A DNA stretch of 64,000 bases from Candidatus Latescibacterota bacterium (GTDB lineage Bacteria; Latescibacterota; UBA2968; UBA8231), in NCBI GenBank assembly GCA_965204725.1, contig OZ242005.1:2912001-2976000 (forward strand). Reading direction: 5' to 3'. The notes under the pieces were generated by a model. It was not told the origin of the DNA. It searched no databases and worked only from the letters and a program-made list of their open reading frames with translations. How positions within the stretch are numbered: position 1 is the stretch's first letter; each line of letters starts with the position of its first letter. Shown in pieces: positions 10,420 to 63,096 of the stretch. Made by a program: the position numbers and the translations under genes.

Positions 10420-12935
10420 ACGAGGCAACCGCTCGTCGCAAGATCGACCGGCTGCTCGAAAACGCGGGGTGGCGCTTCTTCGACAGCGACGACGGGCGAG
10501 CCAATATCCGCTTGGAAGCGCAGGTCGCCCTCCAGCGCGACGACCTCGACCGCTTGGGCGACGATTTCGAGCGTTCCGGCCGAGGGTTCGTCGATTTCCT
10601 GCTCCTCGACGACCGGGGCTTTCCGTTCATCGTGTTGGAGGCCAAGTCCGAGGCCAAAGACCCCCTCGTCGGCAAGGAGCAGGCCCGCCGCTATGCCCGC
10701 TCGCTAGACTGCCGCTTCGTCCTCCTCTCCAACGGCAACCTGCACTACTTCTGGGACTTAGAGCGCGGCAACCCGCATATCATCACCGCGTTTCCAACGC
10801 CGGACTCGGTGGAAGGATACAAACAGATCGTTCCCAACCCGCAGCGTCTGATCGATGAACAGGTTGGTGCCGACTACATCGCCCTCACGCAGCGGCCCAA
10901 CTATGCGGCCGAGGCCGGGTGGCGCGACGAGGCCGAGCGACCCGGCTACATCGAGACGCACGGGCTGCGCTTTTTGCGCGACTATCAGGTCCGAGCGATC
11001 CATCGTTTGCAGCGGGCCGTCCGCGACGGGCGCGACCGCTTCCTGTTCGAGATGGCGACCGGCACCGGCAAGACGCTGGTGGCCGCGGCCGTCATCAAGC
11101 TGTTTCTCCGCACTGGCAACGCCCGCCGCGTCCTCTTCTTGGTCGATCGGTTGGAGCTGGAAGACCAAGCGGCGCGCAAGTCCTTCGTCCCGTACTTGAC
11201 TCCCGACTTCGACGCAGTCATCTACAAGGAAAAACGCGACGACTGGCGTCGGGCACACATCGTGGTGTCCACCGTTCAGTCACTGCTGTTCAATAACAAG
11301 TACCAAGCGCAGTTTTCGCCCACGGATTTCGACTTGGTGATTTCGGACGAGGCGCACCGCTCCATCAGCGGCAACGCCCGCGCCGTATTCGATTACTTCG
11401 TCGGCTACAAGCTGGGGCTGACGGCTACGCCCCGCGACTTTCTCAGAGGCATCCAAGCGACCGACCCGCGTGCGGTGGAGCGCCGGTTGCTGCTCGACAC
11501 CTACCGCACCTTTGGCTGCGAGCGGGGCGAGCCGACGTTTCGCTACTCCCTGCTCGACGGGGTGCGCGATGGGCATCTGGTCAATCCTCGGGTCATTGAC
11601 GCACGCACCGAGGTGACCACCCAACTGCTCGCCGCCGAGGGCTTTGTGGTGTCTTTCACCGATGACGAAGGCGAGCAACAAGCGGAGGCGTTCAAACGAC
11701 GCGATTTCGAGCGGGCGTTCTTCTCGGAAGCCACCAACGCGGTCTTTTGCCGGACCTTCCTAGAGAATGCGCTCCGCGATCCGATTAGCGGGGAGGTCGG
11801 CAAATCCATCGTCTTCGCCGTGAGCCAGACCCACGCGGCCAAGCTAACGCAGCTATTCAACCAGATCGCCGACCGCATGTTTCCGGGCCGGTATCAGTCG
11901 GACTTTGCAGTGCAAGTCACGTCGCACGTTGCGGACGCCCAGCAATTCGCGGTCAACTTTGCCAACAACAACCTCTTGGGGGCTGGCAACTTCATGCGTG
12001 AGTACCGGACGAGCAAGGCGCGGGTCTGCGTAACCGTCGGCATGATGACCACCGGCTACGACTGCACAGACATTCTCAATTTGGGCCTGTTCAGGCCGAT
12101 ATTCTCGCCGACCGACTTCGTCCAGATCAAGGGGCGCGGCACGCGCAAACACAACTTCCTCGACCTTATGATCGGGCACCGCACCACCGGCGACGCCGCG
12201 CCAGAAAAGACCACCTTCAAGCTGTTCGACTTCTTCGGCAACTGCCAATACTTCGAGACCGAGTTCAACTACGACGAGGTATTGGAACTGCCGCGGTTGC
12301 GCGATAGAAGCGGCGAGCGAGGGGACGAGCCAAGGCCGGTTGTATATGCTGGCCCCTACGAGCACTTGGGGAGCGACTTTCTCTCGACGATTGAGCAAGC
12401 GCAGATCGGGGCCGAGGGGATGAGAATTGACCGGATGTTTTTCGACCGCTTTGCCGACGAGGTGCGCGAAAACGACTTCATTGCCCAAGCCGTTGAAGCG
12501 GGCCAATGGGATCGCGCCATTGACTATGTAAATCGAGAAGTCTTTGACCAGCCCGAGGAGTACTACACCCTCTCCAAGCTGCGCCAAGCCGCGGCCGTGG
12601 ATCGCCGCGTGAGCTTGCGCGAGATACTGGAGAAGGTCTTTGACCTCATCCCGCGTTTTAAGTCGAGAGACGAGTTGCTCGAAGAGGAGTTCGCCAAATT
12701 CGTGGCGGATTACAAGCCCGACGAAGCGGCGTCTGTCGCGGCGATTCGGGCGTACTTCAAGGCGTATCTGACCAGCGGCCGAACCCGAGACATCATTGAG
12801 AACCGGACCTTCACCGAACTGGCGACCAATCCGGCCTTTTCCTCCCGCGACTTTCGCGCCGTGCCGGTGCCATACCGCGCCCTCGTTCCCGAGTATGTCA
12901 AGGATTACGTGTCTCTGAATCAGTTCGCCGTTTAG
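10416..12935 (+). CDS. hsdR: Type I restriction subunit HsdR (EcoAI/EcoEI-like)
   Basis: N-terminal D...LEAK nuclease motif, MATGTGKT, DEAHRS, GLTATP, TTGYD, QIKGRGTR. Confidence 0.92.
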   Translation: MNEATARRKIDRLLENAGWRFFDSDDGRANIRLEAQVALQRDDLDRLGDDFERSGRGFVDFLLLDDRGFPFIVLEAKSEAKDPLVGKEQARRYARSLDCRFVLLSNGNLHYFWDLERGNPHIITAFPTPDSVEGYKQIVPNPQRLIDEQVGADYIALTQRPNYAAEAGWRDEAERPGYIETHGLRFLRDYQVRAIHRLQRAVRDGRDRFLFEMATGTGKTLVAAAVIKLFLRTGNARRVLFLVDRLELEDQAARKSFVPYLTPDFDAVIYKEKRDDWRRAHIVVSTVQSLLFNNKYQAQFSPTDFDLVISDEAHRSISGNARAVFDYFVGYKLGLTATPRDFLRGIQATDPRAVERRLLLDTYRTFGCERGEPTFRYSLLDGVRDGHLVNPRVIDARTEVTTQLLAAEGFVVSFTDDEGEQQAEAFKRRDFERAFFSEATNAVFCRTFLENALRDPISGEVGKSIVFAVSQTHAAKLTQLFNQIADRMFPGRYQSDFAVQVTSHVADAQQFAVNFANNNLLGAGNFMREYRTSKARVCVTVGMMTTGYDCTDILNLGLFRPIFSPTDFVQIKGRGTRKHNFLDLMIGHRTTGDAAPEKTTFKLFDFFGNCQYFETEFNYDEVLELPRLRDRSGERGDEPRPVVYAGPYEHLGSDFLSTIEQAQIGAEGMRIDRMFFDRFADEVRENDFIAQAVEAGQWDRAIDYVNREVFDQPEEYYTLSKLRQAAAVDRRVSLREILEKVFDLIPRFKSRDELLEEEFAKFVADYKPDEAASVAAIRAYFKAYLTSGRTRDIIENRTFTELATNPAFSSRDFRAVPVPYRALVPEYVKDYVSLNQFAV

Positions 12936-57600: not shown

Positions 57601-58896
57601 TTACAAGAGCCGTCCCTCTTTTTGCAGAATATCTCCGGCAATCGCGTAGGTCGTTCCGTGCATGGCAATGACGACGAGGCCGATTCCGGCCGCGAGGTAG
57701 CCCCCGAGATACAAGTTGGGTACGTCAATCGACTCGTAGTTGTGGGCGTGGGTCTGTGCTTGATCCACTTGGAATCGGTAGTTGTCGCGCATGGGCGTTA
57801 GGGTCAGCGGCGCAAAGCCCTGCAAGATCGAATAGTCGGCCGTGCCGCCGATTTCCTTGATCACGTGATCGACCTCCACCGCTTGGTCGCCCTCGGACGT
57901 TTTCAGCCCGACTCGGCCATCCTCGGCGATCTGGGTCACCTCGGTGTGATACAAGGTTTTGAGCCGGGATGAGCGGCTTTCGAGGATTTCGGCGATGCGC
58001 TGGTAATAAGGCAACCCGTGGCGGCTGTCGTTGATTAGCTGCCAATGGACCGCTGGCCCTTGGCGCATGGCGTAGTACACCTGCTTGCCAGCGTCGTGCA
58101 ATTCGGTCGCGGCCCAATCGCCCGAGCGCCCGCCGCCAACGACGAGCACCCGCTCGCCGGGGAAGTCTTCGGGCTTGTCGTAGTGCGCGGTGGCAAAAGG
58201 ATAGGTCTCCCCCTCAACACCCAGCGACCGCAATCGACCGCGCTGGCCGGTTGCTAAGACCAAGTACTTACAGGTGTAGCGCTGCTCAACGCCCGTTTGC
58301 ACGTGCCGACTGGTGAGTTGAAAGCCCCTTTCGTGCGGTTCAATCCGCTCGACCTCCTCAAAGGTGCGAATGCGCTCCGCCACCTCAAAGCGCTCGGGCA
58401 CTCGGTGATAGTATTCGATCAAGTCGGTCTTGAGGATTAGGGCATTGACGTCTAAGGCGCGCCCGACTTCTGCGGCGTACTGGGCCAGCGGATAAAAGGC
58501 GAACTCCATCCACTGCCCCGGCGACAAGGTCAGCAGGTTGTGCGGTGCTCGGTTCCACAACCCGCCGACCGGCTCGCGGCTGATGAGCAGGGCGTCCAAC
58601 GGCTCGCCGCGCCGAAAGTCCATGGCGACTTGGTCCAGTTCCTCAAAAAGCTGGCGCGGGTGGTGCAGCGTGCGAAAGAGGTCAACGGGCTTGATGCCGC
58701 TCTGCACGAGCTGGCGCGTATCCAGCCCCAACAGCGAGCGGTCGAACTGCTGCAAGTACCCGGCGAGCGGCGCGTAGCGCACGGCAAACATCCGGCTGTT
58801 GCGGAAGAAAGGATGCCAGCCGCCCAAGACCACGGCGAGGGGTAGGCCCGCTGGCCCCCCGCCGACGATGATGACGGTGTGGTGTTCTGTGCTCAT
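57601..58896 (-). CDS. FAD/NAD(P)-dependent oxidoreductase (Pyr_redox_3-like)
   Basis: GGGPAG, VLATG, VVGGGRSG. Confidence 0.88.
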   Translation of the reverse strand: MSTEHHTVIIVGGGPAGLPLAVVLGGWHPFFRNSRMFAVRYAPLAGYLQQFDRSLLGLDTRQLVQSGIKPVDLFRTLHHPRQLFEELDQVAMDFRRGEPLDALLISREPVGGLWNRAPHNLLTLSPGQWMEFAFYPLAQYAAEVGRALDVNALILKTDLIEYYHRVPERFEVAERIRTFEEVERIEPHERGFQLTSRHVQTGVEQRYTCKYLVLATGQRGRLRSLGVEGETYPFATAHYDKPEDFPGERVLVVGGGRSGDWAATELHDAGKQVYYAMRQGPAVHWQLINDSRHGLPYYQRIAEILESRSSRLKTLYHTEVTQIAEDGRVGLKTSEGDQAVEVDHVIKEIGGTADYSILQGFAPLTLTPMRDNYRFQVDQAQTHAHNYESIDVPNLYLGGYLAAGIGLVVIAMHGTTYAIAGDILQKEGRLL

Positions 58897-59093
58897 CTCA
58901 TCTCGGTTGTTTCAGTCGTTTCAATCAAAGGCATTACCAGCTTACCAGCAGCACAACGAGCACGACGAAGGCAACGACAGCGAGGGCGGTACGGATTGAC
59001 GAGCGCGGGGCATGCGGGGTGCTCCCCGAGGCGATGAGCGGATAGAGTGACGCGCACCGAGTCGCGTGTACCAGGTGCGCGTATAGACAAGGA

Positions 59094-59531
59094 TTAGGGC
59101 TGGCTCAGATCGGTAGGCTCGTCGGGAGCAACAGGCGCGGCTTGAGCAACGGGCGCGGCCGGAGCGACCGGCGTAGCTTGCGGCCACTTGTGTACAGCCA
59201 GACCCCCCGCCGCCAGACCAATAGTAACCAGAATACCGATAACCCAACAAAAAATCGTGGATTGCTGACGCATATCATCCTTTATCTCGGCGCGCAAATC
59301 TTTCACCGCCGTATCCAATGCGCCACGCATCTCCTTGACCGCCTCATTCGTCATAAGACGCATCTCAGCAATCACCTGGTCAAACCGAGCCTCCACCTTC
59401 TCAAACCGAGCCTCCACCTTCTCAAACCGGGGTTCTAAGATGGCGCCGATCAATTCGATTTGCTCCTTGCTAAGGGTCGTGGAGCCTTGCCCGCGCTCTT
59501 GCTCTTGACCCTCTGTGCGTTGCTCGCTCAT
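59094..59531 (-). CDS. Coiled-coil protein with a C-terminal TM segment (DUF1640/Bdr-like)
   Basis: FEKVEAR tandem heptads, KDLRAEIK, WVIGILVTIGL. Confidence 0.7.
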   Translation of the reverse strand: MSEQRTEGQEQERGQGSTTLSKEQIELIGAILEPRFEKVEARFEKVEARFDQVIAEMRLMTNEAVKEMRGALDTAVKDLRAEIKDDMRQQSTIFCWVIGILVTIGLAAGGLAVHKWPQATPVAPAAPVAQAAPVAPDEPTDLSQP

Positions 59532-59684
59532 AGCTCGTCCCCCGATGGGAATAGTGAATATATAATACAAACTCCTCGTAAGAGGTAAAAACTGCCAAAA
59601 AAAAGGCCGACACCCGAAACCCATCGAGTGCCGACCTTGACCTAAACTACCAACGAATAAGACAGACAGACCTACTCGTCATCG

Positions 59685-60926
59685 TCACAGCGAGTCAAAA
59701 TACGCCACCACGTCCGTATGACCCCGACGCGCCGCCAAGGCCCGAGCCGTCTCGCCGCCGTTGTCCGTAGCCGTGACGCTCGCCCCCTGACCCACCAAAT
59801 ACTTGACCACCGCCAAACGACCCCAAAACGCCGCAGTGTGCAGTACCGTCCTGCCCCGTTGATCCCTAGTCGTGAAGCTCACCCCTTGACTCACCAGATA
59901 CTTGACCACCGCCAAACGACCCCCCAGTGCCGCAATGGCCAGAGCCGTAGAGCCGATACTGCTCGTAGCCGTGGTGCTCGCTCCCGCACCCACGAGATAC
60001 TTCACTACCTCCAAATGACCACGGTACGACGCCTTATGCAGAGGCGTCCCGCCGCCGTCGTCCGTAGCATTCACATTCGCTCCCGCACCCACCAAATACT
60101 TGACCACCGCCAGTTGACCACCAAACGCCGCATAGTGCAGAGGCGTATGGTCGCTTGGGTCGGTAGCCTCAAGAGACATACCTGACTGTACGAATAGCTG
60201 GGCAATGTCTAATTCGCCCCTCTGAGCCGCCCTAAGAAAAACAACAACCGTATAGGTGATACCCCTCCGCTCCAATTCAGCCAGCGCTCGTTCGGACGAC
60301 TTCAAATAGTCCGCAATCGCCGTATTACCCACCGTCACCGCCACAGACCAAGCGGTCGTACGCTGGTCATAGCCCACCGCGAGCACATCCGCGCCCGACT
60401 CCACGAGAAAACGAACCACCGACAAGTTGTTCGCTATGCCCGCCGCATTCATCAACACCGTAAAGCCGTCCTCATCACGGGCCTCGAGATTCGCACCCGC
60501 TCCCACTAAGAACTGAACCACCGACAAATGACCACCATACGCCGCCTCATACAACGCCGTCCAACCTAATTCGTCATCCGCCTCCTCAAGAGACATACCC
60601 GCCGCCACAAACAACTTCACGGTCGCCAAATCCCCCGACTGAGCCGCCAAACGAAACGCCGCGCCCGTATAGGCGATACCCTGCGAATCCAACTCCGCCT
60701 TCGCTTGTTCGGGCGTCAACGATTCGTCCGTAGCAACCTTCGCCGCCGACACCGACAAACCCGCACCCGCCACCGCCGATGCGCCATCCAGCGCGACGGG
60801 CTGGGCCGCTGTTGCGCTCTCGATCTCAGCCGACGGTGCGCCCGCAGGCCCCACAGGTTTCGGGTCCTTGCCACAACCGGCCACGATGACCGACAGACAT
60901 ACGAATACTCCGAATAATGCTTTCAA
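59685..60926 (-). CDS. Ankyrin-repeat lipoprotein
   Basis: Lipobox VAG-C; multiple GxTPLHxAA..G.L.VVKYLV..GA repeats; AAGGAG RBS before a TTG start. Confidence 0.95.
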   Translation of the reverse strand: MKALFGVFVCLSVIVAGCGKDPKPVGPAGAPSAEIESATAAQPVALDGASAVAGAGLSVSAAKVATDESLTPEQAKAELDSQGIAYTGAAFRLAAQSGDLATVKLFVAAGMSLEEADDELGWTALYEAAYGGHLSVVQFLVGAGANLEARDEDGFTVLMNAAGIANNLSVVRFLVESGADVLAVGYDQRTTAWSVAVTVGNTAIADYLKSSERALAELERRGITYTVVVFLRAAQRGELDIAQLFVQSGMSLEATDPSDHTPLHYAAFGGQLAVVKYLVGAGANVNATDDGGGTPLHKASYRGHLEVVKYLVGAGASTTATSSIGSTALAIAALGGRLAVVKYLVSQGVSFTTRDQRGRTVLHTAAFWGRLAVVKYLVGQGASVTATDNGGETARALAARRGHTDVVAYFDSL

Positions 60927-60998
60927 TTAGATGCTCTCCTTGAGAGTATGGTGAAAGGTAAAACGACTACGCGCCTATTGAAAACCAACAGCCCAATA

Positions 60999-61027
60999 CG
61001 GGTCATCCCCGCGGGCGCGGGGAACTG
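60999..61027 (-). CRISPR. Solitary type I-E CRISPR repeat unit (no array, no cas genes)
   Basis: Minus strand CAGTTCCCCGCGCCCGCGGGGATGACCCG, 25/29 identical to the E. coli I-E repeat GAGTTCCCCGCGCCAGCGGGGATAAACCG; 7-bp stem intact. Confidence 0.8.
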
Positions 61028-61198
61028 AGGCGCGCCTTCATTAAGCTATGCCCCCCGGCAGATAGCGTCAATCCCTACCGCGAACACGAACACTCAGCCC
61101 TGCATGTCCAATTCGCCGCGGTAAAACGGCCCGCCAACGACTCGCATACCGAGCGCGGCCACAACCCGCGCACCCCCCCTCAACCCGTGACCGCGGCC

Positions 61199-61295
61199 CC
61201 TAGTCGAGCACCCCCATCCAGCCGCCTAGTCGAGCACCCGCGTACCGAATTTTCGCCCGATTCGCACAAAAGCCACAATTCGCACAAAAGCCACC
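61199..61295. repeat. Iteron-like repeats
   Basis: CCTAGTCGAGCACCC x2 (61199, 61225) and ATTCGCACAAAAGCCAC x2 (61260, 61278). Confidence 0.85.
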
Positions 61296-61312
61296 AAGCC
61301 TACCCATCAAAT

Positions 61313-61495
61313 CTAGTCGCTGGGATCGAAGTCCGTATCCGGCACATTCGACACAAAACCAATCGACTCCGGCCCCTCGCCCGGCTCCACGTCCCCACCA
61401 ACCAGAGACTCCAACCGATCTATGCGAGCCTCCAACCGTTCCACCGCCGCCCGTAAACCACGAACCTCAGCCAACAACTCATCATACTCAGACAT
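61313..61495 (-). CDS. Small coiled-coil hypothetical protein
   Basis: MSEYDELLAEVRGLRAAVERLEARIDRLESL; G-rich RBS. Confidence 0.55.
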   Translation of the reverse strand: MSEYDELLAEVRGLRAAVERLEARIDRLESLVGGDVEPGEGPESIGFVSNVPDTDFDPSD

Positions 61496-61604
61496 CACAC
61501 CCCCCTTAGAAATGAGTGAACAAAAAAACCAGTCCGCCGCGACACCCAAGACACCTAACCAGTCCAACCCAGCCGTCCGCGCAAGCGACAGCAAGAGAGA
61601 TAGC

Positions 61605-62069
61605 CTACCCGCCCTGCGACTCCAAGTACTCCACTACCGCCGTATGACCCCCCTCTTGGGCGAAGTCTTTGGCTGTCCAGCAGTAGTCGTAGGTGGCCCC
61701 TACGCGGGCCCCGATACCCACCAGAACCTGCAAAAACGTATTGCTACTGTCGACCTTAGCGTTTATATCCGCACCCTGCTCTACTAAAAAACGAACTACC
61801 GACAAATGACCACCATACGCCGCCTCGTGCAAAGTCGTAAAGCCGAGGATGCCCTCGGTGTCAACCGACATGCCCGCCCGCACAAACAGTTTGACAACCA
61901 CCAAGTCACCACTCGCAGCCGCATTATTAAAAGACATAGCCGTATAGTCGATACCCAGATCCGCCAACGCAAAACGTGCCTCCGCCGGCGTCAGACGCTC
62001 GTCCTTGTCCCCCTCATCCCCGCCACACCCCAACGACAAGCCAAACAAGACCAAGACCAAACAACGCAT
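61605..62069 (-). CDS. Short ankyrin-repeat lipoprotein
   Basis: Lipobox SLG-C; TLHEAAYGGHLSVVRFLVEQGADIN; paralog of 59685-60926. Confidence 0.9.
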   Translation of the reverse strand: MRCLVLVLFGLSLGCGGDEGDKDERLTPAEARFALADLGIDYTAMSFNNAAASGDLVVVKLFVRAGMSVDTEGILGFTTLHEAAYGGHLSVVRFLVEQGADINAKVDSSNTFLQVLVGIGARVGATYDYCWTAKDFAQEGGHTAVVEYLESQGG

Positions 62070-62163
62070 AGAAAATCTCCCCGGGTATGAAGTGATCAGT
62101 GAATTATTGCCACAAAACGCACCATTCGCACCCGAACCGCCGTAACCCCTCTATTCAAAGTTC

Positions 62164-62445
62164 TTAATCAACCGTCTCGTGCTTGACCGCCCACGCCAAC
62201 GCGACAACCCAACCTATAAAAGTCCAACCCAAGAAGATGTTGAGCACTAAGATCGAACCAAAATTCTTCTTCTTGCGCCCGACTATGCTCGGCAAGAAAT
62301 AAAGCACAATACTGAACATAAACCCCAACAACGTTAATATCGCTACGACACCCTCCATCGCCGGATCGCCCGCCATCGAATCATAACTGGCCGAAGCCGA
62401 CCCCAGCACCGCGGCAACCAAGACCAACAGCAACCAACGCATCAT
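62164..62445 (-). CDS. Superinfection immunity protein (T4 Imm-like)
   Basis: LYFLPSIV...ILVLNIFLGWTFIGWVVALAWA; GGAGG RBS. Confidence 0.9.
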   Translation of the reverse strand: MMRWLLLVLVAAVLGSASASYDSMAGDPAMEGVVAILTLLGFMFSIVLYFLPSIVGRKKKNFGSILVLNIFLGWTFIGWVVALAWAVKHETVD

Positions 62446-62476
62446 CAACCTCCGTGAAAGATTTATAAGCCTTTGG

Positions 62477-62528
62477 CGCACAAAATGCACAAAACGCACA
62501 AAACGCACAAAACGCACAAAACGCACAA
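62477..62528. repeat. 9-bp tandem repeat (CGCACAAAA), about 6 copies
   Basis: Seen directly, just upstream of the imm gene. Confidence 0.95.
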
Positions 62529-62653
62529 TCAGGGCCGCTGAAAGATCACGCGCCAACCCCGATTGCGGCCCCCCATCGACCGCGGCCGCACTCAACGATT
62601 ACTGGATCAGAGACCAGACCGCCCACCCCAACGCCGCGCATCACCCCGCCCCC

Positions 62654-63010
62654 TCAGCCCAACGCAACAGCAACGCATGACGCGCCGCCCGCGGACCCGC
62701 CCGCACTATGCAGTTTCCTTGCCACGTGCCAATAACTCGCCATCACTCGGCCCCCGGCATAGGACAGCTCGCTTAATCCGTCGGGCGATTGCTCCAGCAT
62801 ATCCATCAGCACCTCCGTCAAAAGCACCTCGTGCAAATGCCAATGCACACCGTCCGAATCTTTGAACCGCTGAAGATACTTGCGCGGCGGCATATCGTCT
62901 GCCGTCAAGCCCGGTAAAGGCGTCACCGGCCGCTCGCGCTTCAAAGCCCCCCAAAACCGCGCTTTGCGGTCGAGATGGGCGATGGCCTTATCCAAACGCG
63001 GCGTTTTCAT
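62654..63010 (-). CDS. Hypothetical protein of the island
   Basis: MKTPRLDKAIAHLDRKARFWG...; ~118 aa. Confidence 0.5.
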   Translation of the reverse strand: MKTPRLDKAIAHLDRKARFWGALKRERPVTPLPGLTADDMPPRKYLQRFKDSDGVHWHLHEVLLTEVLMDMLEQSPDGLSELSYAGGRVMASYWHVARKLHSAGGSAGGASCVAVALG

Positions 63011-63096
63011 ACGAAGCCCCGCGAAATCGGCTCCAGACGTATTTGACGGCCATGAAAACCAGCCCCCACGCCGTGAAAATGAAGGGCGAGTGTCGC

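Follow-up and report, generated by a model that had tools for sequence, protein, structure and literature searches.

How does a single, intact repeat of type I-E CRISPR (short palindromic repeats that are clustered and regularly interspaced) come to stand in front of an ordinary chromosomal gene, and what might it do there? The question is raised by a 64,000-nt stretch of a Candidatus Latescibacterota genome (GenBank assembly GCA_965204725.1, contig OZ242005.1, positions 2,912,001–2,976,000 of the forward strand; hereafter the window, whose own numbering is used unless a contig is named). An earlier reading of its letters (the original prediction) had noticed one such repeat on the minus strand and had proposed an RNA anti-CRISPR, a mini-array guide, or a Cas6 cleavage site. 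We found that the repeat is followed directly by a guide-like tail, that the 2 together resemble the CreR units lying between cas3 and cse1 in type I-E loci of related genomes, and that searches of the host genome (G000; 5.43 Mb in 2 contigs, C1 among them; estimated 94% complete) for CRISPR-associated (cas) genes returned none. With moderate confidence, we read the site as an orphan repeat-plus-guide unit of the CreR/Cracr kind that would be CRISPR-inert in its Cas-less host.

The repeat and its counterparts in CRISPR arrays

Judged from its sequence, the minus-strand 29-mer at positions 60999–61027 (CAGTTCCCCGCGCCCGCGGGGATGACCCG) is a genuine type I-E CRISPR repeat, with the length (29 nt), stem, tetraloop, and 8-nt handle of that family. 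As had been noted, the window has a single such sequence: a search tolerating up to 3 mismatches returned this site alone, and none of 100 shuffles produced a hit. Repeats of apparently functional I-E arrays elsewhere agree with its 27-nt core in every letter, with 28 copies in Sulfidibacter corallicola (L091) and 4 copies in an alphaproteobacterial metagenome-assembled genome (L057); when one handle position is left free, 101 public-genome stretches contain the core, and nearly all of these are arrays. The 2 edits that separate the window repeat from real array repeats are its first 2 bases. The repeat also matches annotated CRISPR features in 4572 of 5426 Escherichia coli genomes, mostly at 80–90% identity, which bears out the reported likeness to the E. 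coli I-E repeat and is consistent with the reported 25/29, a figure not counted letter by letter here. In the predicted fold of the leader, the repeat forms the stem CCCCGC/GCGGGG closed by a GCCC loop (positions 61023–61006, minus strand), in agreement with the intact stem described before, and its last 8 nt (61006–60999, minus strand; ATGACCCG) are the equivalent of the 5′ handle of a CRISPR RNA (crRNA). The identity to arrays elsewhere, the matches to E. coli CRISPR features, and the hairpin fold together rule out chance for the repeat. An Rfam search of the site returned nothing above noise.

A GC-rich hairpin could also arise outside CRISPR, and the genome offers a candidate source in its repetitive extragenic palindromic (REP)-like palindrome CTGGATTCCCGC-N4-GCGGGAATGAC, of which the repeat would then be a divergent copy. 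This palindrome occupies 121 sites in the genome, one of them at the right edge of the block described below (G000:C1:2977066–2977086, equivalent to window positions 65066–65086 and thus just outside the window), and has the frame TTCCC..GC....GCGGG.ATGAC in common with the repeat. However, no fewer than 8 edits separate the repeat from any of the 111 oriented copies, and 11 from their consensus, whereas 101 of the 111 copies lie within 4 edits of the consensus and the other 10 at 5–8 edits; to array repeats, by comparison, the distance is 2 edits. Membership of the REP family, defined as 0–4 edits to the consensus, was rejected at this minimum distance of 8 edits, and we regard an origin from the palindrome as highly improbable. 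The palindrome itself falls into 3 flank subfamilies with some inverted pairs, is present in 21 of the 31 genomes of the genus, and is most abundant in G000 (104 pattern hits), where a single Y1_Tnp hit (C1:1910658–1910888) lies inside a 1217-aa open frame.

Nine loci with a single match to the core were inspected for solitary status and rejected as solitary repeats, 8 of them holding more repeats and the ninth lying at a contig end. Separately, the Streptomyces phages Piccadilly, Ignacio, Vondra, Cumberbatch, Eastland, and HFrancette (records OL455886.1, MT451980.1, MT451981.1, MT451982.1, ON392165.1, and ON456341.1) each carry, at 1 or 2 places in unannotated stretches, a 27-nt match to the repeat at 89% identity; these are possible solitary repeat units.

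A guide-like tail in register with the CreR circuit of related genomes

Six type I-E loci of related genomes (G054, G042, G043, G033, G035 at one of its 2 loci [G035b], and G051) share a unit between cas3 and cse1. Its first part is a degenerate repeat (psiR) that overlaps the stop codon of cas3; a psiS of 21 nt follows (for example, TAGTATGCTGTCGGCTAACGT), and then a second repeat. These CreR-type units lie at 11780–11960 of L135 (G054) and 10320–10500 of L136 (G042), and also in L153, L154, L155, and L151. Downstream of the second repeat is the promoter TTGACA-17-TAGAGT, which was also called by a promoter-scanning tool; a site matching psiS starts after an ATG directly behind the −10 box and is followed by a ribosome-binding site (RBS) and cse1. 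The ATG is present in 6 of the 6 loci. The psiS sequences match their own target sites at 13–14 of 16 positions (in G054, the mismatches are at positions 6, 12, and 15 within the first 16, and also at 18), and in G051 and G033 a change in psiS goes along with a change in the target. The type I-E CreR of Salmonella has the same arrangement, and its psiS also begins with TAG (bioRxiv 10.1101/2023.03.10.532045).

In the window, the handle is directly followed on the minus strand by a 16-nt psiS-like tail, TATTGGGCTGTTGGTT (60983–60998). The likeness fades past position 16; an equivalent of the full 21-nt psiS would span 60978–60998. The tail matches the cse1-promoter target at 13 of 16 positions in 4 loci (G054, G042, G043, and G035b) and at 11 and 10 positions in the other 2. 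In the 4 loci, positions 1, 2, 4, and 7–16 agree and positions 3, 5, and 6 do not; the target stands beside the conserved ATG and in register with the handle. The comparison of 60967–60998 with cas promoters, which the original prediction had recommended, is thus positive. Against the psiS sequences of the same 4 loci, the tail scores 9–12 of 16, with positions 3 and 5 differing and the longest run covering positions 6–11 or 7–11. When the whole region was aligned locally, the best match was psiR plus psiS, with 28/37 identities in the 4 loci and 28/35 in G033, and the homology is limited to about 45 nt. The TATTG start of the tail is also found in a unit of G046.

The match was first met when about 75 kb of sequence from cas and array loci were scanned, a search in which shuffled queries average 0.37 hits at 13/16 or better, and the weight of the evidence therefore rests on the position of the match, its register, and a spacer control. 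For this control, every distinct sequence after an I-E repeat in the fetched arrays was used, 374 from the family and 1774 from other bacteria: none of the 2148 spacer starts reached 12/16, the maximum being 11 in the family and 10 in the other bacteria. A handle-plus-psiS pattern run over the 168 genomes of a phylum sample returned the CreR units, 2 array spacers of G051, one hit in G040 that is a chance match inside coding sequence, and the window site, with 0 control hits; the pattern was partly built from the window sequence, and the window's own hit is therefore not independent.

These results also bear on the plainest account of the site, namely that it is a scrap of a former or foreign CRISPR array, a repeat with part of a spacer, whose tail resembles psiS by coincidence. 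Orphan repeats do occur, the homology extends over only about 45 nt, and the background of the 75-kb scan leaves some room for coincidence. Nevertheless, in 4 loci the match coincides exactly with the CreR target and keeps the register of the handle, at a level that no real spacer start attained; in addition, the flanks of the G054 CRISPR-Cas locus map to G000:C1:2778920–2779111, 194 kb from the repeat, so that a relic at the syntenic cas site was rejected. A mere array scrap thus seems quite unlikely to us. Because the tail is in register with both the CreR psiS and its target, we regard the site as a repeat-plus-guide, crRNA-like unit and consider its sequence relationship to CreR solid, with high confidence. 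The suggestion of a crRNA-like regulator holds to this extent; its mini-array form does not, as shown in the next section.

Several further units were seen in the relatives. A CreR-type unit is also present in another genus of the family (G010). In G046 (L156, 700–775), the degenerate repeat at the end of cas3 leads into TATTGATCCGTCGG and then directly into the RBS and cse1; this unit has no second repeat, promoter, or target and looks like the product of a psiS–target recombination that deleted the intervening DNA. No second site for its TATTG-type psiS was found in the G046 genome. In addition, a mini-array lies inside the Cascade operon between cas7 and cas5 (L135, 8300–8480; L136, 6810–6990; also L006 and L007), with a repeat, a 32-nt spacer, and a second repeat ending just before the cas5 RBS. 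Its spacer is nearly identical in G054, G042, and G043, and no clear target for it was found in those genomes. We know of no described in-operon unit between cas7 and cas5.

A solitary repeat in a genome without cas genes

The repeat stands alone in its genome: the 5.43 Mb hold no second 29-mer within 7 substitutions of it or of 2 same-genus repeats. The very weak second copy suggested at 61065–61093 (minus strand; about 14/29) is not a repeat. It is identical at 12 of 29 positions, a level matched equally in ungapped comparison by 98% of 3000 random 100-nt genome stretches; its local alignment score is at the random-stretch median, and gapped alignments of the repeat to both 100-nt flanks score at or below that median. 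With no further copy genome-wide and both flanks at chance, the site does not show the regular spacing (about 61 bp) of at least 2 repeats that characterizes a CRISPR array, and the mini-array option was rejected for want of a second copy above chance. Nor is the solitude a product of assembly. An independently assembled Logan contig of 1875 nt, probably from the same sample as the genome, spans positions 60642–61700 with zero differences and at a depth equal to that of the flanks; because it bridges the site without a difference, a collapsed array or other assembly artefact was rejected.

Profile searches of G000 for Cas1, Cse1, and Cas6e gave no match. Among 14 control genomes, the Cse1 and Cas6e profiles matched only in Thermus; as these profiles are weak tests alone, we added tblastn searches with all open reading frames (ORFs) of at least 120 aa from the cas loci of 2 congeners, which Pfam confirmed to include Cas3, Cse1, Cse2, Cas7, Cas5, Cas6e, and Cas1. 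Against G000, these queries found no cas gene and only one weak helicase-like stretch. A k-mer spacing scan of G000 for arrays returned 16 repeat clusters, none of them array-like; judged from their first 70 nt, they look like coding tandem repeats. A cas locus in the missing part of the 94% complete genome is unlikely but not impossible. The earlier observation that the window contains neither cas genes nor an array can accordingly be extended to the whole genome. Whether the lineage lacks I-E systems altogether, which the original prediction had named as decisive against it, receives a divided answer: the host genome lacks I-E, but Cse1 is present in 8 of 30 congeners, with long I-E arrays. 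Because the genome has no cas genes, a Cas6 site that couples ankyrin expression to the CRISPR status of the host, the third of the proposed functions, cannot operate here.

The unit is also confined to this genome. No orthologous unit was found in the 75 other genomes of the family; single hits in G074 and G040 proved to be chance matches inside coding sequence. The conservation in related elements, for which the original prediction had asked, is absent. Searches for protospacers with the 32 nt after and the 37 nt before the repeat, likewise proposed earlier, gave none: there was nothing above chance in the own genome, only the repeat part of the query matched in phage and plasmid collections, and the guide pattern had no match in viral contigs. 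A junction pattern gave 0 hits in metagenome contigs. Beside the cas loci of the 76 family genomes, no site with at most 1 mismatch to the guide was found, the hits being at control level. On the strand of the repeat, prediction gave neither a promoter nor a terminator; a promoter picked by eye, TTGACG-17 nt-TAGCTT (61071–61043), lies below the threshold of the prediction tool and is not counted.

Genomic context of the unit

The repeat ends 72 nt before the TTG start codon (60926) of a gene for a 413-aa ankyrin lipoprotein and is co-oriented with it, as had been stated. This gene and its 41-nt leader occupy 59685–60967 on the minus strand (AAGGAG RBS; lipobox VAGC), and the leader together with the signal peptide (60821–60967) has a 77% paralogue at G000:C1:1928865–1929008. 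On the other side of the repeat is a 194-bp module (61094–61287, minus strand) with 2 internal direct repeats (GGCTTTTGTGCGAAT twice and GGGTGCTCGACTAGG twice). Its 79% paralogue at C1:1260243–1260410 precedes a paralogue of a 176-aa coiled-coil/transmembrane (TM) gene, and pieces of its first repeat recur near other ankyrin clusters (C1:2556193 and C1:2558314); the module possibly carries a promoter or operator region. Wedged between these 2 modules, in an intergenic region of 386 bp, is a 126-bp segment (60968–61093, minus strand) that holds the repeat, at its middle, together with the tail and has no paralogue. Neither of the 2 paralogues, that of the leader or that of the upstream module, has a repeat unit. 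As the 126-bp segment has no paralogue, the repeat is not part of the conserved regulatory sequence of the ankyrin cassette.

This arrangement must be considered when a role independent of Cas proteins is weighed, in which the repeat would act in cis as a hairpin in the 5′ leader of the mRNA of the ankyrin–176-aa operon and affect its stability, attenuation, or translation. Such a role agrees with the place of the repeat on the coding strand, 72 nt upstream of the start codon and downstream of the 194-bp module, which may contain a promoter and whose paralogue stands before a paralogous gene elsewhere; it also agrees with the formation of the hairpin in the predicted fold. By contrast, the paralogous leader (C1:1928865–1929008) and the paralogous module–gene junction (C1:1260243) work without a hairpin, the fold of the leader is not unusual (z = −0.25), and the exact repeat identity and the CreR-like tail would be left unexplained. 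We consider a cis-acting hairpin improbable.

The unit lies in a species-specific block of 4.2 kb (58897–63090), all genes of which are on the minus strand: the 176-aa gene, the 413-aa ankyrin gene, the repeat unit, a 93-aa ORF, a 154-aa ankyrin gene, and an ORF with an Imm_superinfect domain (62164–62595), the last being the nearby Imm gene that had been pointed out. The block is flanked by a conserved oxidoreductase gene and a gene for a 599-aa hydrolase, the latter common only to G053 and G038. DNA homology to 5 congeners ends at position 58896 and resumes at 65314; as G053 and G038, the closest genomes for this region, share only the hydrolase gene, the genome-specific block is confined to 58897–63090. 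The same site holds unrelated DNA in G051, G043, G046, G054, G042, G053, and G038. The GC content of the block is 60.2%, compared with 64.3% and 62.9% in its flanks.

The original prediction had called the surroundings phage-like cargo, a description that is weakly founded. The Imm_superinfect gene also matches phrog_1039 and is consistent with it, but searches with Pfam, PHROGs, and PADLOC in and beside the block found no integrase, transposase, or phage structural gene, no plasmid or replication genes were found there, and the block ends show no direct (att-like) repeats.

The 93-aa ORF encodes a small acidic coiled-coil protein (61313–61594, minus strand; 60 aa from an internal ATG) and has no paralogue in the genome. 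One relative with 88% identity, P0001 (120 aa), is encoded on a 2310-bp ENA contig; none was found in metagenome contigs. A short tandem codon repeat, FVRFVRFVRFVHFV, at about 62480–62530 in the long ORF upstream of the Imm_superinfect domain also heads P0001, which suggests another gene order in that relative. Genes for periplasmic ankyrin lipoproteins and 176-aa coiled-coil/TM proteins occur in multiple copies, at about 113, 779, 1260, 1928, 2556, 4092, and 4388 kb of C1, and in the window (58897–64896) this family adjoins the 599-aa hydrolase, which is a lipase-like alpha/beta hydrolase. The layout presumably resembles that of effector–immunity clusters.

Origin and possible activity of the unit

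The sequence suggests what the unit would do in a cell with an I-E system. Cas6e would cut the transcript after the hairpin and leave an RNA that begins with the handle AUGACCCG and continues with UAUUGGGCUGUUGGUU. A Cascade carrying this RNA would pair with the cse1 promoter immediately behind its −10 box, beside the ATG, in the manner in which the CreR-type RNA encoded between cas3 and cse1 in the relatives would steer Cascade onto its own promoter. In the present host, the unit, if transcribed, would merely give the ankyrin lipoprotein mRNA a leader with a GC hairpin. Because the host genome is without cas genes, the copy found here is most likely stranded and CRISPR-inert. We infer that it arrived by recombination or gene transfer into the small species-specific block, and that we are probably dealing with a regulator or decoy that was stranded or borrowed, not with immune memory.

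Five observations weigh against this orphan, inert unit: (i) a neutral relic should decay, and yet the repeat is letter-perfect over 27 nt; (ii) tail positions 7–16 match the target at 10 of 10, compared with 8 of 10 for the relatives' own psiS, which together with the perfect repeat argues for a recent arrival or for selection; (iii) the unit is a compact, full repeat and guide with no cas3 or cse1 remnants alongside, and is therefore more like a module than a deletion scar; (iv) it lies in a species-specific block beside a superinfection-immunity-like gene, a setting compatible with mobile-element cargo; and (v) the gene pool offers a partner, since 8 of 30 congeners have I-E systems.

The same observations favor the idea that the unit is an active RNA anti-CRISPR carried as cargo and useful on entry into I-E-positive relatives, which we put forward as a tentative possibility. 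It would act either as a Cracr-like mimic of CreR, causing the Cascade of a recipient or rival to repress its own cse1 promoter, or as a decoy like the RNA anti-CRISPRs (Racrs), soaking up Cas6e and Cas7. The guide matches its target at 13/16 beside the ATG, and the canonical repeat is nearer to array repeats than is the degenerate psiR of the relatives themselves. E. coli Cascade can function without Cas6e and without the 3′ hairpin. The site shows the sequence features given for solitary repeats in PMC10651486: it is intergenic, it matches a known repeat over the full length, and the 100 bp around it contain no partial repeat. As a CreR homologue outside any cas locus, it corresponds to a Cracr candidate as defined in bioRxiv 10.1101/2024.10.29.618823, in which one described I-E Cracr also has no 3′ processing and keeps an unprocessed 40-nt tail.

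Against an active anti-CRISPR stands, first, the guide itself, which mismatches every target seen at positions 3 and 5 and also mismatches at position 6. Every sixth guide base is not read, which bears on the mismatch at position 6. No perfect target was found near any cas locus in the 76 family genomes. Repression by the Salmonella CreR was abolished when the first 3 nt of psiS were mutated (bioRxiv 10.1101/2023.03.10.532045). The carrier is the second difficulty: no phage, plasmid, or integrase genes and no att-like repeats mark the block, and the host is Cas-less, whereas about 90% of (pro)viruses bearing solitary repeat units (SRUs) reside in CRISPR-positive hosts (PMC10651486). Viral contigs, phages, and plasmids yielded no copy beyond the bare repeat, and the unit has neither a second repeat nor a predicted promoter or terminator.

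A version of the anti-CRISPR idea that does without a mobile element is that of a working RNA weapon on the chromosome, a one-repeat CreR mimic carried by a Cas-less species in a small variable block; this we consider rather doubtful. When transcribed in an I-E cell, whether through DNA transfer or because an I-E element enters, the RNA would be cut by Cas6e and Cascade would shut its own cse1 promoter, and this shutdown would protect the incoming or resident DNA. The stranded, CRISPR-inert unit remains the reading that we prefer.

Implications and comparison with known systems

To our knowledge, CreR autoregulation and its hijacking by Cracr and Racr have been described only in 2023–2026 and almost entirely in Proteobacteria, Firmicutes, and Actinobacteria. 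The present loci indicate that the same I-E CreR circuit is present in a bacterial family unrelated to these groups, and that in one Cas-less member of it a perfect repeat is joined to a CreR-like guide, away from any cas locus and from any recognisable mobile element. If active, the unit would be a minimal, single-repeat anti-CRISPR RNA and a natural test of the seed mismatch that Cascade-based repression tolerates; Cracr-type RNAs would then extend from phages and plasmids to non-mobile chromosomal cargo, with a single repeat in an mRNA leader. If inert, it would be a dated fossil of the traffic between CRISPR loci and ordinary chromosomal cargo, and a warning that orphans of this kind will turn up in screens for solitary repeats.

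CRISPR remnants in cas-less genomes are usually short degenerate arrays at the former locus. The window unit shares with them a repeat without cas genes and differs in being a perfect single repeat at a non-syntenic position with a regulator-like tail. With the REP-like palindromes of G000, it shares a GC-rich hairpin and a frame like TTCCC..GGGAATGAC; it is at least 8 edits away from them and is without their CTGGA head and flanks.

Among RNA regulators, CreR has the same repeat-derived 5′ handle and a short guide that partly matches the casA/cse1 promoter beside a protospacer-adjacent motif (bioRxiv 10.1101/2023.03.10.532045), and the window unit is homologous in register to the CreR units of the relatives. 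The guide matches 4 congener loci at 13/16 beside the ATG and at 10/10 over positions 7–16; it has no target in its own genome, since there are no cas genes. However, a CreR is a psiR–psiS–psiR unit inside a CRISPR-Cas locus, with 2 degenerate repeats, whereas the window unit has one canonical repeat in an ankyrin leader in a Cas-less host and a guide mismatched at positions 3 and 5. Because it lies outside a cas locus, it is not CreR.

The Racrs, or SRUs (Camara-Wilpert et al. 2023, PMC10651486), likewise mimic a full-length repeat, singly and between genes, with the hairpin intact and the surrounding 100 bp free of partial repeats, and in sequence the window unit conforms to this description. 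Their definition refers to (pro)viruses and plasmids, whose hosts mostly carry the matching system, and a guide is not required. The window unit, by contrast, is on no recognisable mobile element, its host has no Cas1, Cse1, or Cas6e of the matching subtype, and a CreR-like guide is present; with a Cas-less host and a position off any virus or plasmid, it is therefore atypical for a Racr.

Cracr is similar in being a CreR-like unit outside CRISPR-Cas loci with the I-E casA/cse1 promoter as its predicted target, and the window unit, which is CreR-like and lies outside such loci, agrees with this. The Cracrs described in bioRxiv 10.1101/2024.10.29.618823 are on viruses or plasmids and usually lie between 2 repeat-like sequences, whereas the window unit is chromosomal, with a single repeat and no mobility genes; with one repeat and no recognisable mobile element, it is therefore not a Cracr as described. 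By its sequence, the unit resembles CreR and Cracr on paper while standing outside the strict membership of each family.

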